Assembly (NCBI RefSeq): GCF_050920415.1
Contig: NZ_CP169309.1
Reading direction: 5' to 3' (one strand)
Length of the DNA: 64,000 nt
Source of the DNA: Escherichia coli
GTDB taxonomy: Bacteria > Pseudomonadota > Gammaproteobacteria > Enterobacterales > Enterobacteriaceae
Shown: positions 14,814 through 32,817 of the stretch, piece by piece
How the letters are laid out: every line of letters begins with the position of its first letter
Position numbering within the stretch: position 1 is the stretch's first letter
Notes under the pieces: generated by a model
Database searches by the model: none
Told to the model about the DNA's origin: nothing
Seen by the model: the letters and a program-made list of their open reading frames with translations, nothing else
Position numbers and translations under genes: made by a program

Positions 14814-14818
14814 AACGA

Positions 14819-15966: not shown

Positions 15967-15980
15967 TTCAATTCCTTTTG

Positions 15981-16919: not shown

Positions 16920-17505
16920 TCTGGCTAAAATCTATTGTTGGGGTTTTACTCACAGCGGCGACATCATCCGGTAAATAATTTTTCTTCGGTGTGTAATCCA
17001 TGACTTTTGCGGTTAACACTGCGGGGAATTTGCGGATAGTGACATTATATTGTTCGATGGCTTTAATATATCTTCCTCGCGCAACGGCAATTCGATTTTC
17101 ACTTCCTTCGAGCTGTACCATCAAATTTTGATAGAGTTCCTGGGCCTTTAGCTCAGGGTAACGTTCACTAATTATCGTTAACTGACCGAGAGTGCGAGAC
17201 ACCTGCGCCTGGGCCTGTTGCCAGACTTGTAATTTTTGTTCATCCCCCGGAGTTTGCTGAAGATCGCTACTGGCGCGATTAGCCTGACTACGTGCCAATG
17301 TTACGGCTTCCAGTACCTCTTGTTCATGGCTGGAATAACCTTTAATACTAGCGACAAGATTAGGAATAAGATCGGCGCGACGTTGATATTGATTTAATAC
17401 CTCAGACCAGGAAGCGTTAACCTGCTCATCATAGGTTTGAATATCGTTATATCCACAGCCTGATAAATTGAAAATAAATATAATTACGATGAATATTCTG
17501 AGCAT
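16903..17505 (-). CDS. LemA-family lipoprotein
   Basis: 200-aa ORF with lipobox (FNLSGCGY) and LemA-like coiled region; its 3' end overlaps the start of the TPM gene (translational coupling). Confidence 0.8.
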   Translation of the reverse strand: MLRIFIVIIFIFNLSGCGYNDIQTYDEQVNASWSEVLNQYQRRADLIPNLVASIKGYSSHEQEVLEAVTLARSQANRASSDLQQTPGDEQKLQVWQQAQAQVSRTLGQLTIISERYPELKAQELYQNLMVQLEGSENRIAVARGRYIKAIEQYNVTIRKFPAVLTAKVMDYTPKKNYLPDDVAAVSKTPTIDFSQNANAH

Positions 17506-17677: not shown

Positions 17678-18349
17678 ATGCAGTACCCGATTAACGAGAT
17701 GTTCCAGACCCTGCAAGGTGAGGGTTACTTTACCGGCGTCCCCGCCATTTTTATTCGTTTACAGGGATGCCCGGTCGGCTGTGCCTGGTGCGACACCAAA
17801 CACACCTGGGAAAAGCTTGAGGATCGGGAAGTCTCCCTTTTCAGCATTCTGGCGAAGACCAAAGAGAGTGATAAGTGGGGGGCGGCGAGCAGTGAAGATT
17901 TGCTGGCTGTCATTGGTCGTCAGGGATACACCGCGCGGCATGTGGTGATTACGGGTGGTGAGCCTTGCATTCATGATTTGCTGCCACTGACTGACCTGCT
18001 CGAAAAGAACGGTTTTAGCTGCCAGATCGAAACCAGCGGTACTCATGAAGTACGCTGCACGCCGAATACCTGGGTTACCGTATCGCCAAAGCTGAACATG
18101 CGCGGCGGCTATGAAGTGTTGTCACAGGCACTGGAGCGAGCCAACGAAATCAAGCATCCAGTGGGACGCGTACGTGATATTGAAGCACTGGATGAACTAC
18201 TGGCAACGCTGACCGATGATAAACCACGAGTCATTGCACTGCAGCCAATTAGCCAGAAGGACGATGCCACACGTTTGTGCATTGAAACCTGTATTGCGCG
18301 TAACTGGCGTTTATCGATGCAAACACATAAATATTTAAATATTGCCTGA
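17678..18349 (+). CDS. queE: 7-carboxy-7-deazaguanine synthase (radical SAM)
   Basis: 223-aa ORF; Cys motif CPVGCAWC; MQYPINEMFQTLQGEGYFTG. Confidence 0.92.
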   Translation: MQYPINEMFQTLQGEGYFTGVPAIFIRLQGCPVGCAWCDTKHTWEKLEDREVSLFSILAKTKESDKWGAASSEDLLAVIGRQGYTARHVVITGGEPCIHDLLPLTDLLEKNGFSCQIETSGTHEVRCTPNTWVTVSPKLNMRGGYEVLSQALERANEIKHPVGRVRDIEALDELLATLTDDKPRVIALQPISQKDDATRLCIETCIARNWRLSMQTHKYLNIA

Positions 18350-18539
18350 TTAAACATTTATAAGCGTTATAAATGGGTGGAACCTGTAAAGACTTCCACT
18401 CATTTATATTCTTTGTCGCCTCTGAAAAAACTCCATTTTGCCCATTCTGGACTAATCATTATCATTCTCTACAAATTCTCTGGCGTTAATTTTTCGTTGG
18501 AGTGAAAATTATTGCAGTGAAGTTTGGTAGATTTTAGTG

Positions 18540-18687
18540 GGTATAGAGTTATTTTAAATATTTACTTTTTTAATCAATGGATTAAGTGTTCTTTAACATA
18601 ATGGATGTGTTGTTTGTGTGATCCTGTAAAGTTGGTAGATTGTGACTGGCTTAAAAAATCATTAATTAATAATAGGTTATGTTTAGA
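18540..18687 (+). promoter_or_regulatory. putative leader of the queE-proximal CRISPR array
   Basis: AT-rich sequence immediately 5' of the first repeat, same polarity as the repeats. Confidence 0.4.
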
Positions 18688-18899
18688 GAGTTCCCCACGT
18701 CAGCGGGGATAAACCGCTATACGAAGTTATTAGGTCCGAAGAGGAGTTGAGTTCCCCACGTCAGCGGGGATAAACCGTTTACGTGTTATCGCGCACCGGC
18801 GACGGTGTGGAGTTCCCCGCGCCAGCGGGGATAAACCGATTCAGCAAATAGCGAATTTCATAAATATGATGTGTTCCCCGCGCCAGCGGGGATAAACCA
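18688..18899 (+). CRISPR. type I-E CRISPR array, 4 repeats / 3 spacers (ygcE-queE array)
   Basis: 29-bp repeats at 18688, 18749, 18810, 18871 with 32-bp spacers (period 61); repeats 1-2 are the variant GAGTTCCCCaCGtCAGCGGGGATAAACCG, repeat 3 is canonical, repeat 4 is degenerate (GtG..., terminal a). Confidence 0.9.
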
Positions 18900-19352
18900 C
18901 CATATAACCCGTTATCTCTTTCTCAAGTTTTTATATTAGCTGTACTTGTAATAAGCAACATATCCACATAACACCTCATGTTCAAAATAGTTCCCCATGC
19001 CAGATAAGTTCACAATTATCGATACAAAAAATCAAATTTAATCAAAGTGTTATATGTATAATCCTTAAACCGTTAAGAAATTTTAATATATTATTTTTTT
19101 AATATTAATTAATGCCTGTTAATTTTTTCTTTAGAATAACAGTGTATTTTTTAAGCTTGTTATTCATTGATTAAGTAATAAATCTGGAAGTTTGTCTTTG
19201 TTTTGAGGCTAATGAGTGGTTTTACATAACCGCCTCTATACGCTGTTGATGAATAGTTCTTATGAATAAAGATATCCAGTTCATACTTTAAGTGAAAATT
19301 GATAAAGTGCGATTCGTATTGTCTTTTATTCTAAAGACATCGAGTGTAGTTA

Positions 19353-19490
19353 ATATTCCTTGTAAAAACAGGGATAAACCGAACTAGTTAAAGTTTTTAT
19401 TATGTTCCCTGCATCAGCGGGGATAAACCGGACTTGTTATCATTTTTTAAGTTGTCGAACTTATGTTCCCCGCGCCAGCGGGGATAACCA
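19353..19490 (+). CRISPR. degenerate CRISPR remnant (2-3 decayed repeats)
   Basis: repeat-like units ending at 19381, 19430 and 19490 (atGTTCCCtGCatCAGCGGGGATAAACCG; atGTTCCCCGCGCCAGCGGGGATAACCA) with one 32-bp spacer 19431..19462. Confidence 0.6.
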
Positions 19491-19536
19491 TTCAGGTATG
19501 TTCAGGCCGGGCAGTTTCCCGCCCGGTCTTCCTCAC

Positions 19537-21015
19537 TTACGCATTCGACCAGCTCTGGATCGAATCTGCATTCCCCAACTCACCATGCATCACTTCATAC
19601 GATTTTTTCAGGATCACATCAGTGTGTTTGGTTAGGTCTTTGAAAATGCCTTTATTCATCGCGTCGTAGCGTTTGGCATTGCTCTCAATCGGCATAAAGA
19701 TATCTTTCACGCGAACCATTTTGTCGACAGCCGTTGCGTAATCCGGGTATAGCCCCAGACCTACCGCTGTATTAATCGCGGCCCCCAGACTTGCGCAACC
19801 ATTAATGGCGTTACGGCGTGCCGGAAGGTTGAACACGTCGGCAAAAATCTGCATAAACAGATCGCTGTTCGAACCACCGCCAGTAATGATCACATGTTTC
19901 GCAAAGTGATTCATTTCATGACACATATTGTCGTAATTGTTCTTCAGCGTCAGCGCCACGCTTTCCAGTATCGAACGATAAATCCATGCGTAATCCATGC
20001 TGGAATCAAAGCCGATCATAATCCCGCGTTTGTAGGGTTCCCACGGGTTGGTCAGCCAGTCCAGCACCGTCATCAGACCATTACAGCCAGGCGGCACACA
20101 ACAAGCTTTTTTGTTGAGCAAATCTTCCGGTGAAAGATCCTGCGCCCTGGCATCCTGAATTAACGACTCGCCTAACATGTCGCGTAGCCAGCTCACCGTC
20201 CACATGCCTTTGCGAATACCGTAACCTTCATACAGCAAGGTTTGCGGAATAGAAGACATAATCGGCCAGTACGCTACCGGATCTTTCGGCAGTGCTTTGC
20301 CGTTCATCATCAGCGCGATGTAGGTACCAAGAGAAATTACCGCAGTTTCATCATCCAGTAACCCGGCTCCCAGTGCTTCTACCGGTTTATCACTGGTGGT
20401 ACAAACAACCGGCAGCCCAGCCGGGAAATGTGTCGCCAGCGCGGCTTGTGGTGTGATATGCCCAAGAACAGTGCCCGGCATTTGCACATCAAAAAGCATC
20501 TGTCGGGGAATATTAAACTTCTCCATTACCGCGGTATCTTCGCTCCATGCCCAGGTCTTATAATCCACCGGCCACTGACCAAAATAGTTGGCGATATTGT
20601 CTTTAAACTCGCCGGTTAAACGGTGTGTCAGATAACCTGAAAAAGAGGTGACATATGCCACATCAGGATTGGTGTGCTCGTAGGGACGTGTTACGCGTGC
20701 ATCCTGCCAGCTAATCAACGGCGCAGCTGGCGTGCCATCGGCTTTCAATAACGCACGGCAGCAACGGATAGATCCCAGACCAATGCCGACAATATCTTCT
20801 TTATTCCCGGCAAACTGGCTCATCAAATCGTGACCGGCAAAACATAATGATGCCCATAAATCGTCATCAGGATGTTCTGCGGTATCGGCATCTGGCGTGC
20901 GCATCGGCTGCAATAAGCCTTTGCCTTCGCATACCACATTACCTTCCAGATCGTACATCACCACTTTTGTGCTCTGACTTCCGCCATCAATCCCTATGAT
21001 GTATTTTTTCGACAT
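19537..21015 (-). CDS. ygcE: FGGY-family carbohydrate kinase
   Basis: 492-aa ORF; N-terminal IGIDGGSQSTKVV sugar-kinase motif. Confidence 0.85.
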   Translation of the reverse strand: MSKKYIIGIDGGSQSTKVVMYDLEGNVVCEGKGLLQPMRTPDADTAEHPDDDLWASLCFAGHDLMSQFAGNKEDIVGIGLGSIRCCRALLKADGTPAAPLISWQDARVTRPYEHTNPDVAYVTSFSGYLTHRLTGEFKDNIANYFGQWPVDYKTWAWSEDTAVMEKFNIPRQMLFDVQMPGTVLGHITPQAALATHFPAGLPVVCTTSDKPVEALGAGLLDDETAVISLGTYIALMMNGKALPKDPVAYWPIMSSIPQTLLYEGYGIRKGMWTVSWLRDMLGESLIQDARAQDLSPEDLLNKKACCVPPGCNGLMTVLDWLTNPWEPYKRGIMIGFDSSMDYAWIYRSILESVALTLKNNYDNMCHEMNHFAKHVIITGGGSNSDLFMQIFADVFNLPARRNAINGCASLGAAINTAVGLGLYPDYATAVDKMVRVKDIFMPIESNAKRYDAMNKGIFKDLTKHTDVILKKSYEVMHGELGNADSIQSWSNA

Positions 21016-21041
21016 GATTTTTCTCCTGTAATTTTCTGGAC

Positions 21042-22319
21042 TTACTTGTTGCTAGCCATTGCGGGGGCGCTATCAGCAGTACGAATTTTTTGGAACAGCA
21101 AAAAGGTAAAGACGATCACCATGGCAAGCGCCGCCATGCCCATCAGCCACATATTGCGGTAGGCTTCTGCCGCGGGCAGGGTGTCTTGCCAGTGGCCGAT
21201 AATTGGGTAAACGAAGACATCCGGCAGAAATCCAATCACCGAACAAATACCTACCGTGGTGCCCATAATGTAAGACGGTGTTCTCGCTTCGCCAGGGCAG
21301 GCCCAGTACAGCCCGCGTGAGGCGTAACAGGTGAATCCCAGAAGTAAAATCAGACCAATCCCCATCGCGACCGATTGCGGGTTAGAGTTCGTGATGAGCA
21401 GGGCAGTTAACGCCAGCAGGCCGAGTACGGAAAGGATTTGGATCACGCGGGTAGGGGATTTCACTTTGCTGTAGGTGGTGATAATGCCACCAAGTGGGCC
21501 GCACAGTGCGCGGAAGATTTTGTTGATCACAATCCCCATGTAGCTCGCCGCCACCAGCGACATGCCGTACATTTCGGTCAGATAGTTGGTGGAGTAACTC
21601 AGAATGGCGTAGATGGTGAAGACGCCAAAAATCACCATGCTGCAGTACCATGTGGTGCTGATGCGCAAAACGGCAAGGATGTCGCTAAGCTGGAATGACT
21701 GTTTTTCTTCGTTATTGGCATTGCGCAGGTTGTTGTTATCGCTAACAAAAAACCAGCACAGAATCCCCAATAAAATGTAGACCACACTATAGATGATAAT
21801 GACCGTTTTCAGGCTGGCGCTGTCATCCGGTGCAAAGCGAGAAAAGACCCACATGGTAAACACCGCCAGCGACATTACACCGACGCCGCGCAGCCCTTCC
21901 ATCCAGCCCATAATTTTCCCCTGCTCGCTATGATCGCCAAGCAACGATGCGGCTTTAATCGACACCGACCACAGCATTAAAATCGTCGTTATCGCAAAGG
22001 CGACCTGAATACAGAGCATTACCCACAGCGGTGGATACGTTGCCATTAACAGACCCAGCAATCCGGTAATGATCATCGCGGAAGTAATCATTTTGCGGTG
22101 TGAAAATTTATCGGCAATAACGCCGCTGGGGGCATAAAGAATAATAGCCGCAATACCAAAGGTACTCATTATTAAACCTATCTCGGTATTGCTGAATCCC
22201 ATAAATTTCGCCATGGGAATTTGATAAATATAACGTAAATAAGCCAGGTCGAAACTAACGCCGCCGCTAAAACTAATTATCGCGAGGGTTATCCAACGGC
22301 GATATGAGTTGTGTTGCAT
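21042..22319 (-). CDS. yqcE: MFS transporter
   Basis: 425-aa ORF, about 12 predicted TM segments; position between ygcE and ygcW. Confidence 0.8.
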   Translation of the reverse strand: MQHNSYRRWITLAIISFSGGVSFDLAYLRYIYQIPMAKFMGFSNTEIGLIMSTFGIAAIILYAPSGVIADKFSHRKMITSAMIITGLLGLLMATYPPLWVMLCIQVAFAITTILMLWSVSIKAASLLGDHSEQGKIMGWMEGLRGVGVMSLAVFTMWVFSRFAPDDSASLKTVIIIYSVVYILLGILCWFFVSDNNNLRNANNEEKQSFQLSDILAVLRISTTWYCSMVIFGVFTIYAILSYSTNYLTEMYGMSLVAASYMGIVINKIFRALCGPLGGIITTYSKVKSPTRVIQILSVLGLLALTALLITNSNPQSVAMGIGLILLLGFTCYASRGLYWACPGEARTPSYIMGTTVGICSVIGFLPDVFVYPIIGHWQDTLPAAEAYRNMWLMGMAALAMVIVFTFLLFQKIRTADSAPAMASNK

Positions 22320-22440
22320 ATCGTATTCCCATTTGTAATAGACAAAAAAAAGAGAAAAGTAAGCCGCCCTTTCAGGTGGATTACTTTTCTCAGGTCTCTA
22401 GTAATTGCAGTAAGAAATAACATGGAAAGCAGTGGTGTTG

Positions 22441-22456
22441 TGTGAGAGTAATCACG
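22441..22456. promoter_or_regulatory. candidate CRP site (TGTGA-N6-TCACg)
   Basis: tgtgagagtaatcacg in the divergent yqcE/ygcW intergenic region. Confidence 0.45.
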
Positions 22457-22497
22457 CTTCTGCTTTTTAAAATTATTTGACAATTCGAATATCACAC

Positions 22498-22513
22498 TGT
22501 GATTACGATCACA
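22498..22513. promoter_or_regulatory. candidate CRP site (perfect TGTGA-N6-TCACA)
   Basis: tgtgattacgatcaca about 125 bp upstream of the ygcW start. Confidence 0.5.
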
Positions 22514-22637
22514 TTAGCACTTATTCCCTTATGATAAAAATTATCTCCAGTTACCAGAGATAATGAGAAAGGTAACTTCCCTCTCGCGGGGGAAGTTACC
22601 TTTCTTTTTTTTTGCCTTACGGAAATTGGAGCTAACT

Positions 22638-23423
22638 ATGTCAATCGAATCTCTCAATGCGTTCTCAATGGATTTTTTCTCCCTGAAAGGTAAAACCGCA
22701 ATTGTTACCGGCGGGAATAGCGGTTTAGGCCAGGCATTTGCCATGGCGCTGGCAAAAGCAGGCGCAAATATCTTTATTCCAAGTTTCGTTAAAGATAATG
22801 GCGAAACAAAGGAAATGATTGAAAAACAGGGTGTTGAGGTGGACTTCATGCAGGTGGATATCACCGCAGAAGGCGCGCCGCAGAAGATAATTACCGCCTG
22901 TTGTGAACGTTTCGGCACCGTCGATATTCTGGTTAACAATGCCGGTATATGTAAGCTGAATAAGGTGCTGGATTTCGGTCGTGCCGACTGGGACCCGATG
23001 ATTGACGTGAACCTGACCGCCGCATTCGAGTTAAGCTACGAAGCGGCAAAAATTATGATCCCGCAGAAAAGCGGTAAAATCATTAATATCTGTTCACTGT
23101 TTTCTTACTTAGGTGGTCAATGGTCACCTGCTTATTCTGCCACTAAACACGCCCTTGCCGGATTTACCAAAGCCTATTGCGATGAATTAGGTCAATATAA
23201 TATTCAGGTAAATGGTATTGCCCCAGGATATTACGCTACCGATATCACCCTGGCGACACGCAGTAATCCAGAAACCAATCAGCGCGTTCTTGATCATATT
23301 CCAGCAAACCGTTGGGGCGATACTCAGGATTTAATGGGCGCAGCCATATTTCTCGCAAGTCCGGCATCGAATTATGTCAACGGGCATTTATTAGTGGTTG
23401 ATGGCGGTTATTTAGTGCGCTAA
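22638..23423 (+). CDS. ygcW: short-chain dehydrogenase/reductase (KduD/gluconate-dehydrogenase-like)
   Basis: ORF 22563..23423; start moved to the ATG preceded by GGAG (MSIESLNAF); TGGNSGLGQ Rossmann motif and YSATKHAL catalytic motif. Confidence 0.85.
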   Translation: MSIESLNAFSMDFFSLKGKTAIVTGGNSGLGQAFAMALAKAGANIFIPSFVKDNGETKEMIEKQGVEVDFMQVDITAEGAPQKIITACCERFGTVDILVNNAGICKLNKVLDFGRADWDPMIDVNLTAAFELSYEAAKIMIPQKSGKIINICSLFSYLGGQWSPAYSATKHALAGFTKAYCDELGQYNIQVNGIAPGYYATDITLATRSNPETNQRVLDHIPANRWGDTQDLMGAAIFLASPASNYVNGHLLVVDGGYLVR

Positions 23424-23492
23424 TCCATAACGGTGGTTTCTGATTTCTTTTATTAATGACTATTCCATTTTTATTATCAGGAAGGAATTACT

Positions 23493-24947
23493 ATGTCTTT
23501 ATCTCGCGCAGCGATTGTCGACCAGCTAAAGGAAATTGTTGGTGCAGATCGCGTAATTACCGATGAAACGGTATTGAAGAAAAACAGTATTGATCGTTTT
23601 CGTAAATTTCCGGATATTCATGGTATTTATACTTTGCCTATTCCGGCAGCGGTCGTAAAACTCGGTTCCACAGAGCAAGTGTCCCGTGTGCTGAATTTTA
23701 TGAATGCACACAAAATTAACGGTGTGCCGCGTACCGGGGCTTCCGCTACCGAAGGTGGGCTGGAAACCGTTGTGGAAAACTCGGTGGTGCTCGACGGCTC
23801 TGCCATGAATCAAATCATTAATATTGATATTGAGAATATGCAGGCCACGGCGCAATGCGGTGTTCCGCTGGAAGTGCTGGAAAACGCGTTGCGTGAAAAA
23901 GGTTACACCACGGGGCACTCTCCGCAGTCAAAACCGTTGGCACAGATGGGTGGACTGGTGGCGACCCGTAGTATTGGGCAGTTCTCCACACTCTACGGCG
24001 CAATCGAGGATATGGTCGTTGGCCTGGAAGCAGTACTGGCTGATGGCACCGTGACACGCATTAAAAACGTGCCACGACGCGCGGCGGGTCCGGACATTCG
24101 TCACATCATCATCGGCAACGAAGGCGCATTGTGCTATATCACTGAAGTCACTGTGAAAATCTTTAAATTCACTCCGGAAAACAACCTCTTCTACGGCTAT
24201 ATCCTGGAAGACATGAAAACCGGCTTCAACATCCTGCGTGAAATCATGGTGGAAGGATATCGTCCGTCGATCGCTCGTTTGTATGACGCTGAAGATGGCA
24301 CCCAACACTTCACCCATTTTGCCGACGGAAAATGCGTGCTGATCTTTATGGCTGAAGGTAACCCTCGCATTGCGAAGGCGACGGGCGAAGGGATTGCTGA
24401 AATCGTGGCACGTTACCCGCAATGCCAGCGCGTGGACAGCAAGCTGATCGAAACCTGGTTTAACAACCTGAACTGGGGACCGGATAAAGTGGCTGCCGAA
24501 CGTGTGCAGATCCTCAAAACCGGCAACATGGGCTTTACCACCGAAGTGTCCGGATGCTGGAGTTGCATACACGAAATCTACGAAAGCGTTATTAACCGTA
24601 TTCGTACCGAGTTCGCGCACGCCGACGACATCACCATGCTGGGCGGTCACTCCTCTCATAGCTATCAGAACGGCACCAACATGTACTTCGTCTACGACTA
24701 CAACGTCGTTGACTGTAAGCCGGAAGAGGAAATCGACAAGTACCACAATCCGCTCAACAAAATCATCTGCGAAGAAACCATTCGCCTCGGCGGTTCGATG
24801 GTGCACCACCACGGTATCGGTAAACATCGCGTTCACTGGAGCAAACTGGAACACGGCAGCGCGTGGGCATTGCTGGAAGGGCTGAAAAAACAGTTCGATC
24901 CTAACGGTATTATGAATACGGGTACTATCTATCCGATTGAAAAATAA
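23493..24947 (+). CDS. ygcU: FAD-linked oxidase (PCMH-type FAD-binding domain)
   Basis: 484-aa ORF with FAD-binding-4-like N-terminal domain. Confidence 0.85.
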   Translation: MSLSRAAIVDQLKEIVGADRVITDETVLKKNSIDRFRKFPDIHGIYTLPIPAAVVKLGSTEQVSRVLNFMNAHKINGVPRTGASATEGGLETVVENSVVLDGSAMNQIINIDIENMQATAQCGVPLEVLENALREKGYTTGHSPQSKPLAQMGGLVATRSIGQFSTLYGAIEDMVVGLEAVLADGTVTRIKNVPRRAAGPDIRHIIIGNEGALCYITEVTVKIFKFTPENNLFYGYILEDMKTGFNILREIMVEGYRPSIARLYDAEDGTQHFTHFADGKCVLIFMAEGNPRIAKATGEGIAEIVARYPQCQRVDSKLIETWFNNLNWGPDKVAAERVQILKTGNMGFTTEVSGCWSCIHEIYESVINRIRTEFAHADDITMLGGHSSHSYQNGTNMYFVYDYNVVDCKPEEEIDKYHNPLNKIICEETIRLGGSMVHHHGIGKHRVHWSKLEHGSAWALLEGLKKQFDPNGIMNTGTIYPIEK

Positions 24948-25040
24948 TGTGTCAGGCAGCGTTTCGCGATGACGGGGCGTTGTCTTTTCGGCTTCTCAAC
25001 CGGGAAGCCGTTCTTATTACCGGACAATGAAGGGGTAAAG

Positions 25041-26378
25041 ATGAACACTTCACCGGTGCGAATGGATGATTTACCGCTTAACCGTTTTCACTGTCGAATT
25101 GCTGCGCTGACTTTCGGCGCACACCTGACCGACGGTTATGTTCTCGGCGTCATTGGTTACGCCATAATTCAGCTTACTCCAGCCATGCAACTGACGCCGT
25201 TTATGGCGGGAATGATTGGTGGCTCGGCGCTACTTGGCCTGTTTATCGGCAGCCTGGTTTTGGGGTGGATCTCCGACCATATCGGGCGGCAAAAAATCTT
25301 CACCTTCAGCTTTATGCTGATTACGCTCGCCTCGTTCCTGCAATTTTTTGCCACCACGCCAGAGCATCTTATTGGACTGCGCATTTTGATCGGCATTGGG
25401 CTGGGAGGTGATTACTCAGTAGGTCACACCTTGCTGGCTGAATTTTCCCCGCGCCGCCATCGCGGTATTTTGCTGGGCGCTTTCAGCGTGGTGTGGACCG
25501 TAGGTTATGTGTTGGCAAGTCTTGCCGGACATCACTTAATTAGCGAAAGCCCCGAAGCCTGGCGATGGTTACTTGCATCGGCGGCATTTCCTGCCCTGTT
25601 GATTACGTTGTTACGTTGGGGAACGCCAGAATCGCCACGCTGGCTACTGCGCCAGGGGCGTTTTGCAGAAGCTCACGCTATCGTGCATCGCTATTTTGGT
25701 CCCCATGTTTTACTGGGCGATGAAGTGGCAACGGCGACCCATAAACACATCAAAACCTTGTTCTCTTCGCGCTACTGGCGGCGCACGGCGTTTAACAGCA
25801 TCTTCTTTGTCTGCCTCGTGATCCCGTGGTTTGTGATTTATACCTGGCTGCCAACTATCGCCCAGACTATTGGACTGGAAGATGCGCTGACTGCCAGCCT
25901 GATGCTTAATGCGTTGTTAATTGTGGGCGCGCTGCTGGGATTAGTTCTGACGCACCTGCTGGCACATCGCAAATTTTTGCTGGGAAGTTTTTTGCTGCTG
26001 GCGGCAACGCTGGTAGTGATGGCCTGTTTGCCTTCTGGCAGTTCATTAACGCTGCTGCTTTTTGTTCTCTTCAGCACCACCATTTCGTCAGTCAGTAATC
26101 TGGTGGGCATTTTGCCTGCGGAAAGTTTTCCTACTGACATTCGCTCGCTGGGTATCGGTTTTGCCACTGCCATGAGTCGGTTGGGGGCGGCGGTAAGTAC
26201 TGGCCTGCTGCCGTGGGTGCTGGCGCAGTGGGGAATGCAAGTCACCTTATTGCTCCTGGCGGCAGTGTTGTTGGTTGGTTTTGTTGTGACCTGGCTATGG
26301 GCACCAGAAACCAAAGCACTCCCGCTGGTGGCGGCGGGAAATGTAGGAGGTACGAATGAACATTCTGTTAGCGTTTAA
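25041..26378 (+). CDS. ygcS: MFS transporter
   Basis: ORF 24969..26378; likely start at MNTSPVRMDD preceded by GAAGGGG; 12-TM profile. Confidence 0.8.
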   Translation: MNTSPVRMDDLPLNRFHCRIAALTFGAHLTDGYVLGVIGYAIIQLTPAMQLTPFMAGMIGGSALLGLFIGSLVLGWISDHIGRQKIFTFSFMLITLASFLQFFATTPEHLIGLRILIGIGLGGDYSVGHTLLAEFSPRRHRGILLGAFSVVWTVGYVLASLAGHHLISESPEAWRWLLASAAFPALLITLLRWGTPESPRWLLRQGRFAEAHAIVHRYFGPHVLLGDEVATATHKHIKTLFSSRYWRRTAFNSIFFVCLVIPWFVIYTWLPTIAQTIGLEDALTASLMLNALLIVGALLGLVLTHLLAHRKFLLGSFLLLAATLVVMACLPSGSSLTLLLFVLFSTTISSVSNLVGILPAESFPTDIRSLGIGFATAMSRLGAAVSTGLLPWVLAQWGMQVTLLLLAAVLLVGFVVTWLWAPETKALPLVAAGNVGGTNEHSVSV

Positions 26379-27135
26379 AGCCGAACCGGATGCCGGAATG
26401 CTGGCGGAAAAAGAGTGGCAGGCAGCGGCTCAGGGTAATAGCGGACCGGATGTTTCGCTTCTGCGAAGTTTACTCGGTGCTGATGAACAGGCTGCCGCCG
26501 CGCTGCTGTTGGCGCAGAGAAAAAACGGTATGTCGATGTCTTTAACCGCGTTGAGCATGGGGGATGAACGGGCGTTGCACTGGCTGCGCTATCTCATGGC
26601 TCTTGGGTTTGAGGAAGCTGTATTGCTGGAGACGGCGGCAGATCTGCGCTTTGCGCCGGAATTTGTCGCTCGCCATATTGCCGAATGGCAGCGCCAGAAT
26701 CCGCTGGATCTGATCATTACTGGCTGCCAGAGCAGCGAAGGGCAGAACGGGCAAACGCCATTTTTGCTGGCGGAAATGCTGACTTGGCCCTGCTTTACCC
26801 AGGTGGAGCGTTTTACTCTCGACGCACCGTTTATCTCGCTCGAACAGCGTACTGAACATGGATTACGCTGTTGTCGGGTTCGCTTGCCTGCGGTGATTGC
26901 CGTGCGCCAGTGTGGCGAGGTGGCCTTGCCAGTACCGGGAATGCGCCAGCGAATGGCTGCGGGGAAAGCTGAAATTATCCGCAAAACTGTTACTGCTGAA
27001 TCGCCAGCGATGCAGTGCCGGCAACTGGAAAGGCCAGAGCAACGACGCGGTGCAACGCTTCTTGATGGGCAAACGGTAGCAGAAAAAGCGCAAAAGCTAT
27101 GGCAGGACTATTTACGCCAAAGGATGCAGCCATGA
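26356..27135 (+). CDS. ygcR: electron-transfer flavoprotein beta-subunit-like (FixA-like)
   Basis: 259-aa ORF; overlaps the end of ygcS and the start of ygcQ. Confidence 0.8.
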   Translation: MNILLAFKAEPDAGMLAEKEWQAAAQGNSGPDVSLLRSLLGADEQAAAALLLAQRKNGMSMSLTALSMGDERALHWLRYLMALGFEEAVLLETAADLRFAPEFVARHIAEWQRQNPLDLIITGCQSSEGQNGQTPFLLAEMLTWPCFTQVERFTLDAPFISLEQRTEHGLRCCRVRLPAVIAVRQCGEVALPVPGMRQRMAAGKAEIIRKTVTAESPAMQCRQLERPEQRRGATLLDGQTVAEKAQKLWQDYLRQRMQP

Positions 27136-27992
27136 ATATCGCCATTGTGACAATAAATCAGGACCATGCCGCAATAGCGGGCTGGCTGGCGGAGCAGGAT
27201 TTCAGCGGCAGCACATTAACGCACTGGCAAATCGAGCCGCAGCCGATGGTCGCGGAACAGGTGCTGGATGCGCTGGTAGAACAGTGGCAGCGAACGCCTG
27301 CGGACGTTGTTCTCTTTCCGCCGGGAACGTTTGGTGATGAACTGTCGACACGGTTGGCCTGGCGATTACATGGTGCAAGCATCAGCCAGGTGACTTCGTT
27401 AGATATTTCAACCGGAAGCGTACGCAAATCCCACTGGGGAAATGCGCTAACGGCGACGCTGCAAACAGAAAAACGCCCGCTATGCCTCTCCCTGGCGCGT
27501 CAGGCGGGAGCAGATAAAAACGCCTCGTTGCCCCCGGGTATGCAGCAACTGAACATTGTCCCAGGTGCGCTTCCCAGCTGGCTGGTTAGCATAGTGAACC
27601 TGAAAAATGTTACCCGCGACCCATTAGCTGAGGCCAGACGGGTGCTGGTGGTGGGGCAGGGCGGAGAGGCAGATAACCAGGAAATCGCTATGCTGGCAGA
27701 AAAGCTGGGAGCCGAAGTGGGCTACAGTCGGGCACGAGTGATGAACGGTGGCGTTGATGCTGAAAAAGTGATTGGTATTTCAGGACATCTGCTGGCACCT
27801 GAGGTGTGCATTGTTGTTGGCGCTTCCGGCGCAGCAGCGTTAATGGCGGGCGTACGCAATAGCAAGTTTGTGGTGGCGATTAATCATGACGCCAGCGCAG
27901 CGGTATTTTCACAGGCAGATGTTGGCGTGGTTGATGACTGGAAAGTGGTGCTGGAGGCACTGGTGACAAACATTCACGCAGATTGCCAATAA
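27132..27992 (+). CDS. ygcQ: electron-transfer flavoprotein alpha-subunit-like (FixB-like)
   Basis: ORF 27099..27992; start taken at MNIAIVTINQD. Confidence 0.8.
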   Translation: MNIAIVTINQDHAAIAGWLAEQDFSGSTLTHWQIEPQPMVAEQVLDALVEQWQRTPADVVLFPPGTFGDELSTRLAWRLHGASISQVTSLDISTGSVRKSHWGNALTATLQTEKRPLCLSLARQAGADKNASLPPGMQQLNIVPGALPSWLVSIVNLKNVTRDPLAEARRVLVVGQGGEADNQEIAMLAEKLGAEVGYSRARVMNGGVDAEKVIGISGHLLAPEVCIVVGASGAAALMAGVRNSKFVVAINHDASAAVFSQADVGVVDDWKVVLEALVTNIHADCQ

Positions 27993-27994
27993 CG

Positions 27995-28105
27995 TGTTGC
28001 CGGATGATCCTGCCTACGGTTCTTGCCAGGGGACTTGTAGGCCTGATAAGACGCGTCAAGCGTCGCATCAGGCGCTGAATGTCGGATGTGGCGTGCAGCC
28101 TACAA
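27995..28105. repeat. REP/BIME palindromic elements
   Basis: GCCGGATG... and GTAGGCCTGATAAGACGCG...CGCATCAGGC motifs typical of E. coli REP units. Confidence 0.65.
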
Positions 28106-28138
28106 ATCACACAAATTCAATTCGTTACGATTATCTCG

Positions 28139-28714
28139 TCAAAGCAATTTTTTCGCTAACGTCCAGACCCCGGTATTCGTGGTAGAAAGCGCCACTACAC
28201 CGGCGTTAATCGCATTACGCGCATCTTCTTCATCGCACACCAGCCCGCCAGCAATCAGCGGCTGGTGGATTTTCTCCGTTACCCAGCCCAGCACTTTAGG
28301 CATACAGCCTGGCAGAATTTCAATACAATCAGGATTCGATTGCGCAACCTGCTTATCAATGTTGTGAAAAGAAATCGAGTCGACAATAAACAAGCGATGA
28401 ATACAGAAAAAGCCTTCCGCTCTCGCCGCTTTTAGCATTGACGCTTTGGTACTGATAATGCCGTCCGCCTCGGTCACCAGTTTCAGAAACTGAATTACTA
28501 CTTCTTTATTTGACGCGCCTTCCAGCAAATCGACATGAATAAAAGCATATTTTCCGGCGTTCTTAATCTTTTTGACGATATGACTGATGGTGCAAATATT
28601 GCCGTATAACACGGAAATAAACTGGCATTCAGAATCGATTGCCAACTGCAGGCTGGCATTATCTTTAACGGCAGCAATCACCGGATTCTGGCGGAGCAGG
28701 TGTAAGAGGGGCAT
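28139..28714 (-). CDS. ygcP: GlpP-like antiterminator-family protein
   Basis: 191-aa ORF; position and size match ygcP. Confidence 0.8.
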   Translation of the reverse strand: MPLLHLLRQNPVIAAVKDNASLQLAIDSECQFISVLYGNICTISHIVKKIKNAGKYAFIHVDLLEGASNKEVVIQFLKLVTEADGIISTKASMLKAARAEGFFCIHRLFIVDSISFHNIDKQVAQSNPDCIEILPGCMPKVLGWVTEKIHQPLIAGGLVCDEEDARNAINAGVVALSTTNTGVWTLAKKLL

Positions 28715-28730
28715 AAATTATCCTTATTAT

Positions 28731-28991
28731 TTATCCAAAGCGGTAGATGATGCCGAATCCGGAAGGCGGATAGCGCCACTGTTGCAGTGTTTTTTCATCG
28801 CACAGCAAACGGCAGGTGCCACACTCCAGACAATTACGATAATCAACGTGCAAATCACCTTCCGGTGTGAGCGAAAAAAGACCAGCCGGACAAGCGTTAA
28901 TCAACCGTTCTGCCGTCTGGCGCTCAACGGAGTCAGCCGGAACAATATGTGGCGCATCAGCAGCGCGCCAGAGATTACGGGCTACAGACAT
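28731..28991 (-). CDS. ygcO: ferredoxin-like protein (FixX-like)
   Basis: ORF 28731..29027; Cys cluster CLECGTCRLLC; start taken at MSVARNL. Confidence 0.75.
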   Translation of the reverse strand: MSVARNLWRAADAPHIVPADSVERQTAERLINACPAGLFSLTPEGDLHVDYRNCLECGTCRLLCDEKTLQQWRYPPSGFGIIYRFG

Positions 28992-30253
28992 CGAATACTC
29001 CTGACAACATCGCCCGCCAGATGCCACAGGCCATGACGACGTAAATGACGCCAGAGCAACTGGCGCAGCGGCGGAACAGGTTTATCACCCTGATCCCATA
29101 AATCGCGGGAAATATCCTGCATTAACGCAGGCCACTTACGGTACCAGCCCGGGCGTTGCAAAAGCGCCGGAACATGCTGATAGCGCTGTAGAACATCCCA
29201 CAGCAGGCTGCGCTCTACGTTGTAATGATAAAGCGGAAACAGATTTTGCGGCTCGCGGTGCTGGCAGGCGCTTATCAGCGTTTGTGCCGCCGCCTGTGCG
29301 CCAGCCAGCGCCATATCCATGCCGCGCACGGAAATTCCGGTATTGACGCAACTGCGCAACGCATCGCCCAGCAGCAGCCAGCCGTTACCGGCGTATTGCA
29401 CCGGCATACTGTGCAAGCCACCTTCTGGCACCAGATGCGCACCATACTCCAGTGATTCCGTGTTTTTGATAAGCGGGCGCACTGCCGGATGCGTTTTAAA
29501 GCGAGCCAGCAGCTCGCTTGCCGGAACACGACTTTGCGTAAGTGAAGAGAGCGGGCAAACAATCCCTAACGAGAGCGTTTGTTGATTAGTATAAAGAAAT
29601 GCGCCGTCGGGTAAGTCATCACAGATTCCGCCGCTGAACAGCAACGCTGCGCCTTCGTTATTCTCCAGATGAAAACGTTCTTCAATAGCGGATGTTTCCA
29701 GTGACAGAACTTCTTTAATCCCCAACGCCATCACTTCGCCAGCAGGACGAGTCACTAACCCGTGACGCTCAGACAGGACGCTGTTGGCACCTTCTGCCAG
29801 CACCACATAACGGGCGCGGAGAATATCGTCACCACAAATAACGCCGCAAACTCTGCCTTTTTCTTCATACAGTGCATCCACCGTCGTACCGGGGATGCAT
29901 TCGACACCTTCTTTTTCGGCTTCGGCAACCAGCCACGGATCGAATCGCGCACGTAATACACTCCAGGATTCACCGCCGGGCTGTAAGCTGGAAAACGTCG
30001 TTGCGCCATCCGGCGTTAGCAGAGAAAGACTTTCGTGAGTGATGCGTCGTTCAAGAGGCGCGGTCAGGTGAAACTGAGGGAGGAGTTCCGCGAGCGCATG
30101 GGTGTATAAACGCCCGCCGGAAAGGTTTTTACTGCCGGGAATTTCAGCGCGTTCCAGTAACAGAACGGATAAACCTGCCCGCGCGCAGCGTAAAGAACAA
30201 GCGGTGCCTGCTATACCCGCACCAATAATAATAATGTCGCAGTCGTCTTCCAT
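28982..30253 (-). CDS. ygcN: FAD-dependent oxidoreductase (FixC/ETF-QO-like)
   Basis: ORF 28982..30283; dinucleotide-binding motif IIIIGAGIAG right after the internal Met chosen as start. Confidence 0.8.
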   Translation of the reverse strand: MEDDCDIIIIGAGIAGTACSLRCARAGLSVLLLERAEIPGSKNLSGGRLYTHALAELLPQFHLTAPLERRITHESLSLLTPDGATTFSSLQPGGESWSVLRARFDPWLVAEAEKEGVECIPGTTVDALYEEKGRVCGVICGDDILRARYVVLAEGANSVLSERHGLVTRPAGEVMALGIKEVLSLETSAIEERFHLENNEGAALLFSGGICDDLPDGAFLYTNQQTLSLGIVCPLSSLTQSRVPASELLARFKTHPAVRPLIKNTESLEYGAHLVPEGGLHSMPVQYAGNGWLLLGDALRSCVNTGISVRGMDMALAGAQAAAQTLISACQHREPQNLFPLYHYNVERSLLWDVLQRYQHVPALLQRPGWYRKWPALMQDISRDLWDQGDKPVPPLRQLLWRHLRRHGLWHLAGDVVRSIRCL

Positions 30254-30330
30254 GTCATGCCCCAGATATCCAGAGCGCAACACCCTAACATAGCGTTACT
30301 TAAGGGAAATTGACCGCCGACACACTCTTA

Positions 30331-30696
30331 TCATTCGCCGCGATAGATGCAACCTGCGGTGCAGGTTTCTTTCACCATAACCGCACTTAACAGCGGAACA
30401 ACCGGTTTAACCTGATCCCAAATCCATTTTGCTAAAACCTCGCTGGTCGGGTTTTCCAGGCCAGGAATATCATTGAGATAATAGTGATCGAGGCGATCAT
30501 AGGTTGGTTTAAATGCCGCTTTCAGTTCAGCGAAATCGATAATCCAGCCCGTATGCGGATCGACTTCCCCGGTAATTTCCAGTCGCACCATAAAGGAATG
30601 CCCGTGCAGGCGACCACATTTATGTCCTTCCGGGACGTGTGGTAAGCGGTGAGCGGCTTCGAAGGTGAAATCTTTAAATAACGTGGTGGACATCAT
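30331..30696 (-). CDS. queD: 6-carboxy-5,6,7,8-tetrahydropterin synthase
   Basis: ORF 30331..30780; start taken at [35 protein letters not shown] (PTPS fold, CxxxHGH zinc motif). Confidence 0.88.
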
Positions 30697-31011
30697 AATT
30701 TCTCTACATGACGATAAAACCGCCGTAGAGTACCGGAAAGGCTGTTTTTTCGCATTATCTAAAACGACTTTGTTGCGCAAAATCGCTGATTTATCTTAAT
30801 GATTGGTTAAATTCATTTGTTTTTCATTGGGTTGGTTAATCTGTTTTGTTGTTAAAGACTATTGCTAAAACAGGTTAGTCGATTTGGTTATTAGTTATCG
30901 CTATCCCGTCTTTAATCCACACCGTTCACCCCGTTAACCTTACCTTCTCTTCTGTTTTATGGGCGCTGACAGGGCGCAGAAACAGCTTTGCTTACTGGAA
31001 CATAACGACGC

Positions 31012-32817
31012 ATGACGACACAGGTCCCACCTTCCGCGTTGCTTCCGTTGAACCCGGAGCAACTGGCACGCCTTCAGGCGGCCACGACCGATTTAACTCC
31101 CACCCAGCTTGCCTGGGTTTCTGGCTATTTCTGGGGCGTGCTCAACCAACAGCCTGCTGCGCTTACAGCGACGCCAGCGCCCGCCCCCGCCGCAGAAATG
31201 CCGGGTATAACTATTATCTCCGCTTCGCAAACCGGCAATGCGCGCCGGGTTGCTGAAACATTACGCGATGATTTATTAGCGGCAAAACTGAACGTTAAGC
31301 TGGTGAACGCGGGCGACTATAAATTCAAACAAATCGCCAGCGAAAAACTGCTCATCGTGGTGACGTCAACGCAAGGTGAAGGGGAACCGCCGGAGGAGGC
31401 CGTCGCGCTGCATAAGTTCCTGTTCTCCAAAAAAGCGCCGAAGCTGGAAAACACCGCGTTTGCCGTGTTTAGTCTCGGCGATAGCTCTTATGAATTTTTC
31501 TGCCAGTCCGGAAAAGATTTCGATAGCAAGCTGGCGGAACTGGGCGGTGAACGCCTGCTCGACCGTGTCGATGCCGATGTTGAATACCAGGCCGCTGCCA
31601 GCGAGTGGCGCGCCCGCGTGGTAGATGCTCTTAAATCGCGTTCGCCTGTCGCGGCACCTTCGCAATCCGTCGCTACTGGCGCGGTAAATGAAATCCACAC
31701 CAGCCCGTACAGCAAAGACGCGCCGCTGGTGGCGAGCCTTTCGGTTAACCAGAAAATTACTGGGCGTAACTCTGAAAAAGACGTTCGCCATATCGAAATT
31801 GACCTGGGCGACTCTGGCCTGCGTTACCAGCCTGGCGATGCGCTGGGCGTCTGGTATCAGAACGATCCGGCGCTGGTGAAAGAACTTGTCGAATTGCTGT
31901 GGCTGAAAGGCGATGAACCTGTCACCGTCGAGGGCAAAACGTTGCCTCTGAACGAGGCCCTACAGTGGCACTTCGAACTGACCGTCAACACCGCCAACAT
32001 CGTTGAGAACTACGCCACGCTTACCCGCAGCGAAACACTGCTGCCGCTGGTGGGCGATAAAGCGAAGTTACAGCATTACGCCGCGACCACGCCGATTGTC
32101 GATATGGTGCGTTTCTCTCCTGCGCAGCTTGACGCTGAAGCCCTGATTAACTTGCTGCGCCCGCTGACCCCGCGCCTGTACTCCATCGCCTCCTCGCAGG
32201 CGGAAGTCGAGAACGAAGTACACGTCACCGTTGGTGTGGTGCGTTATGACATTGAAGGCCGCGCCCGTGCTGGCGGTGCCTCCAGCTTTCTTGCGGACCG
32301 TGTGGAAGAAGAGGGCGAAGTCCGCGTATTTATCGAACATAACGACAACTTCCGCCTGCCCGCTAACCCGGAAACGCCGGTGATTATGATTGGCCCAGGC
32401 ACCGGCATCGCGCCATTCCGCGCCTTTATGCAGCAACGCGCCGCTGACGAAGCGCCGGGCAAAAACTGGCTGTTCTTCGGCAACCCACACTTTACCGAAG
32501 ATTTCCTCTACCAGGTGGAGTGGCAGCGCTACGTCAAAGAGGGCGTGCTGACGCGTATCGATCTTGCCTGGTCGCGCGATCAAAAAGAAAAAATTTACGT
32601 ACAAGACAAAATGCGCGAACAGGGCGCAGAGCTGTGGCGCTGGATCAATGACGGTGCCCACATTTATGTCTGCGGCGACGCTAATCGCATGGCGAAAGAC
32701 GTTGAACAGGCACTTCTGGAAGTGATTGCCGAATTTGGTGGCATGGACACCGAAGCGGCGGATGAATTTTTAAGTGAGCTGCGCGTAGAGCGCCGTTATC
32801 AGCGAGATGTCTACTAA
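31012..32817 (+). CDS. cysJ: sulfite reductase [NADPH] flavoprotein alpha subunit
   Basis: 601-aa ORF; flavodoxin and FAD/NADPH reductase domains; [17 protein letters not shown]. Confidence 0.96.

Follow-up and report, generated by a model that had tools for sequence, protein, structure and literature searches.

The ygc cluster of Escherichia coli as a candidate CRP- and antiterminator-gated catabolic island with two GlpP-type leader RNAs and an AGPS-type flavoenzyme

The ygc cluster occupies positions 19537-30253 of the stretch of Escherichia coli DNA analyzed here (64,000 nucleotides of contig NZ_CP169309.1, hereafter the window) and consists of ten intact genes without internal stops: ygcE, yqcE, ygcW, ygcU, ygcS, ygcR, ygcQ, ygcP, ygcO and ygcN. 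With moderate confidence we interpret the cluster as a catabolic island for a small compound with a glycerol-like 1,2-diol end, which is gated by CRP and by an antiterminator and in which a flavoenzyme of the alkyl-dihydroxyacetone phosphate (DHAP) synthase (AGPS) type processes a phospho-ketone. A narrower version is proposed only tentatively, namely a multi-phylum pathway for a glycerol-linked quaternary ammonium compound, in which YgcU would cut the C-X bond of a 1-substituted DHAP by AGPS-type covalent flavin chemistry and whose leaders would form a new RNA family. The ten genes are arranged in three transcription units, yqcE-ygcE (minus strand, 22319-19537), ygcWUSRQ (plus strand, 22638-27992) and ygcN-ygcO-ygcP (minus strand, 30253-28139), and the 10,717 bp are 100% identical to those of E. 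coli NZ_CP169399.1, the source of the RefSeq gene names. The cluster was detected in 5060 of 5426 complete E. coli genomes (93%; at least 80% coverage), its gene order is kept in about 50 species of the Enterobacterales and its core is kept across phyla, demonstrating that the grouping is not due to chance. The gene families assigned in the original prediction (a kinase, two MFS transporters, an SDR, an electron-transfer flavoprotein (ETF) pair, a Fix-like character of ygcRQ and ygcNO, and a GlpP-like regulator) were borne out by RefSeq and by domain matches, and none of the ten cluster proteins reached a curated NCBIfam equivalog cutoff.

Following the check put forward in the original prediction, the 5' untranslated regions (UTRs) were examined for RNA targets of the GlpP type, and two leaders were found, one for each of the divergent operons. 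The leader of ygcWUSRQ (22547-22613, plus strand) was identified by a terminator scan, by alignment and by a covariance model (R1), which was made from an alignment of the ygcW leaders of 29 species. The predicted ygcW transcript opens with CAGUUACC AGAGAUAAUGAGAAA GGUAACU, so that AGTTACC (22549-22555) and GGTAACT (22571-22577) form a helix closed by the purine-rich loop AGAGATAATGAGAAA. This antiterminator helix is followed by an intrinsic terminator with a stem of 19 pairs (22565-22606) and a run of nine T (22605-22613) just ahead of the ribosome-binding site of ygcW, and the 3' arm of the antiterminator sits within the 5' arm of the terminator. The leader of yqcE-ygcE (22337-22407, minus strand) was identified with R1 and has the same parts, with antiterminator arms at 22405-22400 and 22385-22380, a terminator stem at 22391-22352 and a T-run at 22351-22344. 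In both terminators a long, GC-containing stem is followed by eight to nine T. R1 scored 92.9 bits at the ygcW leader and 61.9 bits at the yqcE leader (E = 2.5e-9; span 22337-22425, minus strand). A fixed consensus pattern, allowing up to three mismatches, occurred once in the window (0 expected); since this pattern caught the ygcW leader only and the covariance model was needed for the yqcE copy, the motif should not be called single copy.

Both structures are supported by the pattern of substitutions. In the 29-species alignment, 8 of 16 terminator pairs showed a compensatory change, while in the 7-bp AGUUACC/GGUAACU helix 98.5% of the cells were paired and three of the seven pairs were compensatory, a signal which collapsed when the register was slid. 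Because the aligned sequences are related, these counts are supportive and not probabilistic. In folding calculations the nascent hairpin of the ygcW leader reached -6.7 kcal/mol versus -34.2 kcal/mol for the full terminator fold, and that of the yqcE leader -1.4 versus -22.3 kcal/mol. Such weak hairpins next to strong terminators argue for termination by default and for a protein clamp being needed for read-through. An Rfam scan of 18000-31500 (E up to 1) returned matches at chance level only, to naRNA4 over a repetitive extragenic palindromic (REP) element, to an archaeal snoRNA and to NrrF (22.9 bits versus a gathering score of 60), which places the leader outside every described family. 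A typical E. coli genome has the leader at two places (median); the leader is at least 99% identical in 4159 genomes and is unannotated, whereas the coding DNA around the leaders is less conserved (90-99% identical).

The two leaders would be transcribed from back-to-back promoters between yqcE and ygcW, with predicted transcription start sites (TSSs) near 22547 for ygcW and near 22407 for yqcE. A perfect-consensus CRP site, TGTGATTACGATCACA (22498-22513), has its center at -41.5 relative to the predicted start of ygcW, as in CRP-dependent class II promoters, a spacing that depends on the TSS predicted from the extended -10 element TGaTAAAAA (22532-22540) of the ygcW promoter. A second, CRP-like site, TGTGAGAGTAATCACG (22441-22456), would be centered at the same distance of 41.5 bp from the predicted yqcE TSS. 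The site TGTGATTACGATCACA between ygcW and yqcE had earlier been predicted by PhyloScan, was bound by CRP in chromatin immunoprecipitation sequencing of enterotoxigenic E. coli (PMC4287617) and bound CRP in vitro with a Kd of about 1.7 nM (PMC12871828). The yqcE-ygcE operon is moreover listed as Crp-activated (PMC8085971).

The candidate regulator YgcP (28139-28714, minus strand) is a GlpP-family antiterminator, annotated in RefSeq as glycerol-3-phosphate responsive antiterminator. It matched PF04309 (G3P_antiterm) over model positions 1-173 of 173 (2.2e-62) and PDB 3kts (9.3e-29). A scan for YgcU with one genome per species gave 67 loci; the ten E. coli proteins were mapped onto these, the remaining open reading frames were clustered and precomputed Pfam contexts were read. 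The leader stands ahead of the SDR gene in every fetched Enterobacterales locus, and also in Photobacterium, Sporomusa and one Syntrophomonadaceae genome. R1 matches were present in all scanned loci encoding GlpP/YgcP, in six phylum-level groups, and the positive non-enteric loci include Salsuginibacillus, Alkalicoccus and Thalassobacillus (Bacillaceae), Fodinisporobacter, Enterococcus canis, Anaeromicrobium and Vibrio hannami. In the eight loci without GlpP (L002, L055, L060, L061, L064-L067) no R1 match was detected; these encode an RpiR/SIS or a sigma-54 regulator instead or, where the contig is truncated, no regulator that is visible. In loci lacking GlpP, the RpiR/SIS regulators likewise suggest an inducer that is phosphorylated.

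Taken together, a control scheme in which CRP, leaders that terminate by default and YgcP as putative antiterminator act on the two divergent operons is well supported. The leader structures, their conservation, their occurrence together with the regulator and the binding of CRP are shown, whereas the binding of YgcP to the hairpin or its loop, the nature of its ligand and the exact TSSs are inferred. CRP-cAMP would activate the two promoters, and the intrinsic terminator would by default stop each transcript within its leader. YgcP loaded with a phosphorylated intermediate of the pathway would bind the purine-rich loop of the weak 5'-terminal hairpin, and this clamp would sequester the 5' arm of the terminator, so that RNA polymerase could read on into ygcWUSRQ and yqcE-ygcE.

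The conserved core of the system consists of ygcW, ygcU and ygcE, which were present as a set in nearly all of the 67 loci; most of the exceptions are truncated contigs. As a rule ygcP is present with the three genes. No SDR match was found beside ygcU in Enterococcus canis (L070) or in the Desulfobacterales locus L055, and the truncated contig of L055 stops before any kinase. Across phyla, identities to the E. coli proteins are 61-80% for YgcW, 54-73% for YgcU and 43-57% for YgcE. Genes beside the distant loci (for cobalamin synthesis, MoeA/MoeB, a proline-racemase-like protein and signaling) were inconsistently linked and were dropped as clues.

YgcW (22638-23423, plus strand) is an SDR close to KduD and gluconate 5-dehydrogenase, with 348.8 bits to NF005390 (KduD; cutoff 369). 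Relatives of this type convert R-CHOH-CH2OH to R-CO-CH2OH. In the Enterococcus canis locus the place of the SDR is taken by a GldA-family glycerol dehydrogenase (444 bits versus a cutoff of 336) with a leader copy ahead of it, and this non-homologous replacement argues that the step is the oxidation of a glycerol-like secondary alcohol. YgcE (19537-21015, minus strand), encoded by the second gene of the yqcE-ygcE operon, is an FGGY-family kinase whose best NCBIfam scores stayed far from XylB (142 versus a cutoff of 380), LsrK (137 versus 528) and GlpK (103 versus 590). Its nearest solved structures are LsrK and then glycerol kinases.

The third core protein, YgcU (23493-24947, plus strand; RefSeq: FAD-binding oxidoreductase), had been described as a FAD-linked oxidase. 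The FAD_binding_4/FAD-oxidase_C architecture behind this name was found, as read from the precomputed domains of a 99%-identical protein (P0001), but the enzyme belongs to the AGPS type and is no ordinary oxidase. Its closest solved structures are alkyl-DHAP synthases (2.8e-40), followed by glycolate oxidase (4.6e-26) and LctD (3.5e-22). R262, Y398 and H438-H440 of YgcU align with R419, Y578 and H615-617 of AGPS; R262 corresponds to the Arg that is changed to His in PDB 4bc7 and Y398 to the Tyr that is changed to Phe in 4bca. The Arg, the Tyr and the HHH are invariant in 26 members of the YgcU family, and all 26 carry (V/C)HHHG(I/V)GK, not the (S/G)EHG(I/V/L)G of the D-2-hydroxyacid dehydrogenases (GlcD/LctD/D2HGDH). 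With the Arg, Tyr and HHH residues, AGPS enolises acyl-DHAP at its DHAP moiety onto flavin N5, whereupon the C1 carboxylate leaves and a new nucleophile enters. YgcU is shorter than AGPS (484 versus 658 or 584 aa) and the alignment begins at YgcU 51-60 and AGPS 138-215; about 155 N-terminal residues of AGPS are missing from YgcU, whose residue 60 aligns with AGPS 215. Because of this short N-terminus and of a gene context suited to small polar solutes, YgcU is regarded as AGPS-like in active site and mechanism and is not classified as an AGPS.

A second flavoenzyme, LctD/GlcD-like and paralogous to YgcU (paralogue c18), is encoded in loci of strict anaerobes and of Photobacterium (L003, 13241-14782; L004, 13187-16591; L069, 13233-16800; L072, from 20099; L055, from 10146). 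The (S/G)EHG motif was present in two of four sequences of this paralogue, the others reading SEYG and SYG, and the segment with the aligned Tyr is absent from it. In Photobacterium and Firmicutes HGW-7 the second flavoenzyme is accompanied within the cluster by a separate EtfB and an EtfA with a ferredoxin domain, a module that is missing from E. coli.

The ETF genes themselves behave differently from the core. YgcR (26356-27135, plus strand) and YgcQ (27132-27992, plus strand) are the ETF beta and alpha subunits of the FixA/FixB family (Pfam ETF, 4.4e-15, and ETF_alpha, 2.3e-17, plus ETF, respectively), YgcN (28982-30253, minus strand) is a flavoprotein resembling FixC and ETF-quinone oxidoreductase, and YgcO (28731-28991, minus strand) is a FixX-like ferredoxin, so that ETF alpha, ETF beta, FixC-like and FixX-like proteins are encoded together. 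YgcN stayed below cutoff with both NF007450, a FixC-type subfamily (376 bits), and the FixC model (356 bits). YgcO matched the FixX model at 1.4e-21 and has an intact cysteine motif, CPAG...CLECGTCRLLC. Since all Fix and ETF matches lie below the curated cutoffs, the set represents a divergent paralogue. The 23-nt overlap of ygcS and ygcR places both genes in one operon, ygcR and ygcQ overlap as well, and the overlap of ygcN with ygcO indicates that ygcNOP is one operon. REP/BIME-type palindromes fill the convergent gap between ygcQ and ygcP (28000-28115), where a sub-threshold Rfam match to naRNA4 was obtained (29.4 bits versus 59.5).

Both ETF and FixCX are missing in Erwinia, Pantoea, Izhakiella, Ewingella, several Serratia and all Bacillaceae loci of the scan. 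In strict anaerobes and Vibrionaceae EtfBA follows ygcU directly and FixCX is absent; EtfBA directly after ygcU was seen in the loci of Sporomusa, Photobacterium, Syntrophomonadaceae, Desulfobacterales, Anaeromicrobium and Vibrio. The ETF evolves quickly where it is present: in several other genera of the Enterobacteriaceae, e.g. Pluralibacter and Cedecea, YgcR and YgcQ are only 40-48% identical, and compared with other E. coli they are 87-89% identical, whereas YgcW and YgcU reach 99-100%. The dN/dS ratios were 0.01-0.06 for the core and 0.07-0.26 for ETF and FixCX (ygcR, 0.09-0.23; ygcQ, 0.12-0.26), showing that the ETF/FixCX module is functional and under purifying selection, but less constrained than the core. 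The ETF/FixCX set is thus an accessory module and not the conserved heart of the system. As a separate observation, 19537-30696 is unusually polymorphic in Escherichia, with a dS of 0.10-0.58 in a comparison with three E. coli/Escherichia sp. genomes, E. albertii and E. whittamii; the next-best of the 5426 genomes is 97.9% identical to the region and half of them lie at 90-95%.

The two transporters of the E. coli cluster are both MFS proteins. YqcE (21042-22319, minus strand) is of the anion:cation symporter or organophosphate-antiporter-like type, with below-cutoff matches to a D-galactonate transporter and to the PgtP subfamily. Orthologues of YqcE stand beside the core in Enterobacterales and Photobacterium, and a relative of 27-28% identity was found in two Bacillaceae loci; MFS genes that may be related are also present in the Vibrio and L075 loci. 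YgcS (RefSeq 24969-26378, plus strand) gave below-cutoff matches to the aromatic acid:H+, sugar porter and organic cation transporter subfamilies. Judged by the ribosome-binding site GAAGGGG ahead of it, the true start of ygcS is likely the ATG at 25041 (MNTSPV...) and not the RefSeq start at 24969. The RefSeq extension contains a 9-bp GC-rich hairpin (24989-25010) between ygcU and ygcS, which could be an intra-operon processing or attenuation site.

Outside the Enterobacterales the MFS importers are mostly replaced by betaine transporters of the BCCT or Opu type, which were found within or adjoining the cluster in 12 non-enterobacterial loci. BCCT carriers are encoded in Alkalihalobacillus, Sporomusa, Photobacterium, Firmicutes HGW-7, Anaeromicrobium, Vibrio hannami and Thalassobacillus, and ABC systems of the OpuA/OpuC/OsmF type in Salsuginibacillus, Alkalicoccus, Fodinisporobacter and L075, as well as in a Syntrophomonadaceae genome, there in an adjacent position only. 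In eight of the 12 loci a leader lies directly ahead of the betaine-type transporter gene or its operon, so that these transporters belong to the regulon. To our knowledge, all characterized substrates of BCCT- and Opu-type transporters carry a quaternary ammonium, sulfonium or similar cationic group. The transporter replacements suggest that the substrate is a betaine-type derivative of glycerol rather than a sugar. In the Alkalihalobacillus oceani locus (L002, 1932-5984), which has a sigma-54 activator and no GlpP, genes for an aspartate-ammonia-lyase-like protein, a betaine-aldehyde-dehydrogenase-like aldehyde dehydrogenase and a zinc-dependent alcohol dehydrogenase sit between an OpuAC gene and the BCCT, SDR, kinase and YgcU genes. 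This set may be a downstream route for a released betaine alcohol; a route from homoserine betaine via trimethyl-aspartate to trimethylamine is a lead only, as it concerns a single locus.

From family-level knowledge and comparative genomics we infer the following chemistry. A compound of the form X-CH2-CHOH-CH2OH would be imported by YqcE and/or YgcS. YgcW would oxidize the secondary alcohol at C2 to a ketone and YgcE would phosphorylate the neighboring primary alcohol, in either order, which would yield X-CH2-CO-CH2-O-phosphate, a 1-substituted DHAP. A phosphorylated intermediate of this route would be the ligand of YgcP and, elsewhere, of the SIS-domain RpiR regulator. YgcU would then enolise the phospho-ketone on its flavin with the Arg/Tyr/HHH set and remove X, for which two variants can be envisaged. 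In the first, substitution by water would give DHAP in a redox-neutral reaction, which would suit trimethylamine, a phosphate ester or a carboxylate as leaving group. In the second, net oxidation at C1 would produce an unstable hemiacetal or hemiaminal that falls apart, and the electrons would pass via YgcRQ (ETF) to YgcNO (ETF-quinone oxidoreductase and ferredoxin) and on to the quinone pool. The second variant would account for EtfBA staying with ygcU in anaerobes and being dispensable in aerobes; of all parts of the model, the role that it gives to ETF is the weakest. A quaternary ammonium group of the betaine type is probably part of X. Without a firm ranking, the candidate substrates are glycerophosphocholine, 3-(trimethylammonio)propane-1,2-diol and the deacylated glyceryl ether head group of betaine lipids (glyceryl-trimethylhomoserine).

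Several points weigh against this interpretation. AGPS chemistry is redox-neutral, which leaves the adjacency of YgcU and EtfBA in anaerobes, Vibrionaceae and enterics unexplained unless there is net redox chemistry. The importers of E. coli are MFS proteins and not betaine-type transporters, so that the compound handled in E. coli might not be the one handled in the marine and halophile loci. No R1 leader copy was found ahead of ygcNOP, and no experiment was found that ties any compound to the ygc cluster.

The ETF would be explained best by a pathway for a polyol or a sugar acid, built like GlpK/GlpD or EryA/EryB, an alternative we consider unlikely. Here the kinase would make a polyol phosphate, YgcU would be a FAD dehydrogenase passing electrons via ETF and FixCX to quinone, and the SDR would carry out a neighboring redox step. 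YgcU belongs to the GlcD/D-lactate dehydrogenase superfamily, of which LctD works with ETF (7qh2 was among the structure matches), EtfBA follows ygcU directly in the loci listed above, and the regulator is of the glycerol-3-phosphate family. However, YgcU has the HHH/Tyr/Arg signature of AGPS and lacks the (S/G)EHG of the dehydrogenase-like paralogue, many YgcU loci are devoid of ETF, and betaine-type transporters would be unexpected for sugars or polyols.

A reductive, anaerobic electron sink resembling the cai/fix system appears less probable still. According to this explanation YgcNO and YgcRQ would feed electrons to YgcU for the reductive cleavage of an alpha-ammonio ketone, e.g. with release of trimethylamine. 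YgcRQNO are paralogous to FixABCX, and in E. coli the FixABCX genes adjoin the operon for carnitine, a betaine; the link to betaine-type transporters would fit here too, and ETF is enriched in anaerobes and facultative anaerobes. Yet the aerobic Bacillaceae and Erwiniaceae keep the core without ETF, the cluster contains no CoA-transferase, ligase or acyl-CoA dehydrogenase, and no FNR-type site was noticed on reading the intergenic sequence, for which no dedicated search was made; moreover, sequence does not reveal which way the electrons would flow. That the cluster is cryptic or decaying in E. coli, silent behind its two strong terminators and kept by drift near the recombination-prone CRISPR region, is very improbable, since the ten intact reading frames, the low dN/dS, the near-invariant leaders, the presence in 5060 of 5426 genomes and the retention of the same system across phyla stand against the strength of the terminators, the unusual polymorphism (dS 0.10-0.58; half of the genomes at 90-95% identity) and the lack of a phenotype or substrate in the searchable literature.

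No assignment of a substrate or pathway was found in the searchable literature on ygcE, ygcW, ygcP, yqcE or ygcU, and literature on combinations of AGPS, FGGY, BCCT, ETF and GlpP, on betaine-lipid head groups, glycerophosphocholine and dihydroxypropyl-trimethylammonium likewise contained no pathway assignment. The statement of the original prediction that the substrate is not known therefore stands, as no prior experimental assignment, which it had named as grounds for its refutation, was found there. A paper from 2026 still labels ygcU simply as FAD-binding oxidoreductase, and the "ygcO" of a review on the PTS-Ntr system was rejected as relevant, being a misspelling of ycgO. Already known are the gene catalogue and the CRP site. 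New, as far as checked, are the pair of GlpP-type leaders in Enterobacteriaceae and its spread over several phyla, and likewise the division into core and accessory ETF, the AGPS-type active site of YgcU and the link to betaine-type transport.

The surroundings of the cluster contain further features. The cluster had been described as wedged between two CRISPR loci; degenerate type I-E repeats do lie directly upstream, but the other array (44818-45152) is about 14.5 kb downstream, past queD, cysJIH and the cas genes. The degenerate repeats form two runs between queE and ygcE, abutting ygcE, at 18682-18902 and 19396-19494 (four and two repeats, 61-bp spacing, 68-100% identical to the reference copy). 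Here the window differs from the otherwise identical NZ_CP169399.1 by 61 bp, corresponding to one repeat-spacer unit. Upstream of queE, at approximately 14000-17500 in the annotation of locus L001, three TPM-domain pseudogenes lie by a LemA-family gene; their lesions according to RefSeq are an internal stop, a frameshift and a truncation. A 24-nt tandem repeat (54782-54857; 3.2 copies, 69% matches) is located far outside the cluster.

For the ygc cluster, part of the unexplained gene set of E. coli, there are now two defined leaders, a regulator candidate and a prediction of the class of its intermediate. Should YgcP act as proposed, GlpP-type antitermination would operate in Enterobacteriaceae, outside glycerol metabolism and via an uncatalogued RNA family. 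If YgcU works as suggested by its active site, the flavin chemistry of ether-lipid synthesis would also be used for catabolism in bacteria. The betaine-type link would add a route for quaternary amines, relevant to osmolyte cycling and to trimethylamine formation in the gut; if it is true, gut Enterobacteriaceae would release a product of the choline, betaine or trimethylamine type.

Four known systems resemble the ygc cluster in part. In LctBCD of Acetobacterium woodii, as in ygc, an enzyme with FAD_binding_4 and FAD-oxidase_C domains is encoded beside EtfBA; unlike LctD, YgcU has the AGPS signature and lacks (S/G)EHG. The caiTABCDE-fixABCX and ydiQRST systems share with ygc paralogous ETF alpha and beta subunits, FixC and FixX attached to a specific catabolic cluster, and cai/fix and the wider ygc family are both tied to betaine transport of the BCCT type. 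In contrast to cai/fix, ygc has no CoA chemistry, its ETF/FixCX set is dispensable in many lineages, and antitermination takes the place of CaiF.

The closest regulatory counterpart is the glp regulon of Bacillus subtilis, with leaders at glpD, glpFK and glpTQ. Like ygc, it has a PF04309 regulator, and its target operons start with a promoter, after which the 5' UTR contains a binding region and an intrinsic terminator. The 5' UTR of glpD, when transplanted, gives GlpP- and glycerol-dependent control. When folded, this 5' UTR showed a weak GGUC...GACC hairpin with the loop UGAGAUGAGGAGA, the 3' arm of which lies within a terminator of -40 kcal/mol. By eye and by folding, and with one published glpD 5' UTR as the only reference, the glpD and ygc leaders appear alike in layout and in the GAGA...GAG loop. 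In both systems a catabolite signal is placed over antitermination, CcpA in B. subtilis glp and CRP in ygc, and no published report of a GlpP-type mechanism in Enterobacterales was found. The ygc system differs in its targets, which are not glpF, glpK, glpD, glpT or glpQ but genes for an SDR, an AGPS-like flavoenzyme, an FGGY kinase other than GlpK, ETF and MFS or BCCT transporters, and plain glycerol-3-phosphate is consequently an unlikely ligand.

With respect to the enzymes, the counterpart is eukaryotic. Ether-lipid metabolism uses the same three enzyme types as ygc, namely AGPS, acyl/alkyl-DHAP reductase, which is an SDR, and alkylglycerol kinase. The ygc cluster differs from it in the shorter YgcU, which would act in a soluble pathway, in the adjacent ETF, in transporters for small polar compounds and in having no acyltransferase. 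The proposed ygc pathway would correspond to ether-lipid chemistry run in the catabolic direction.

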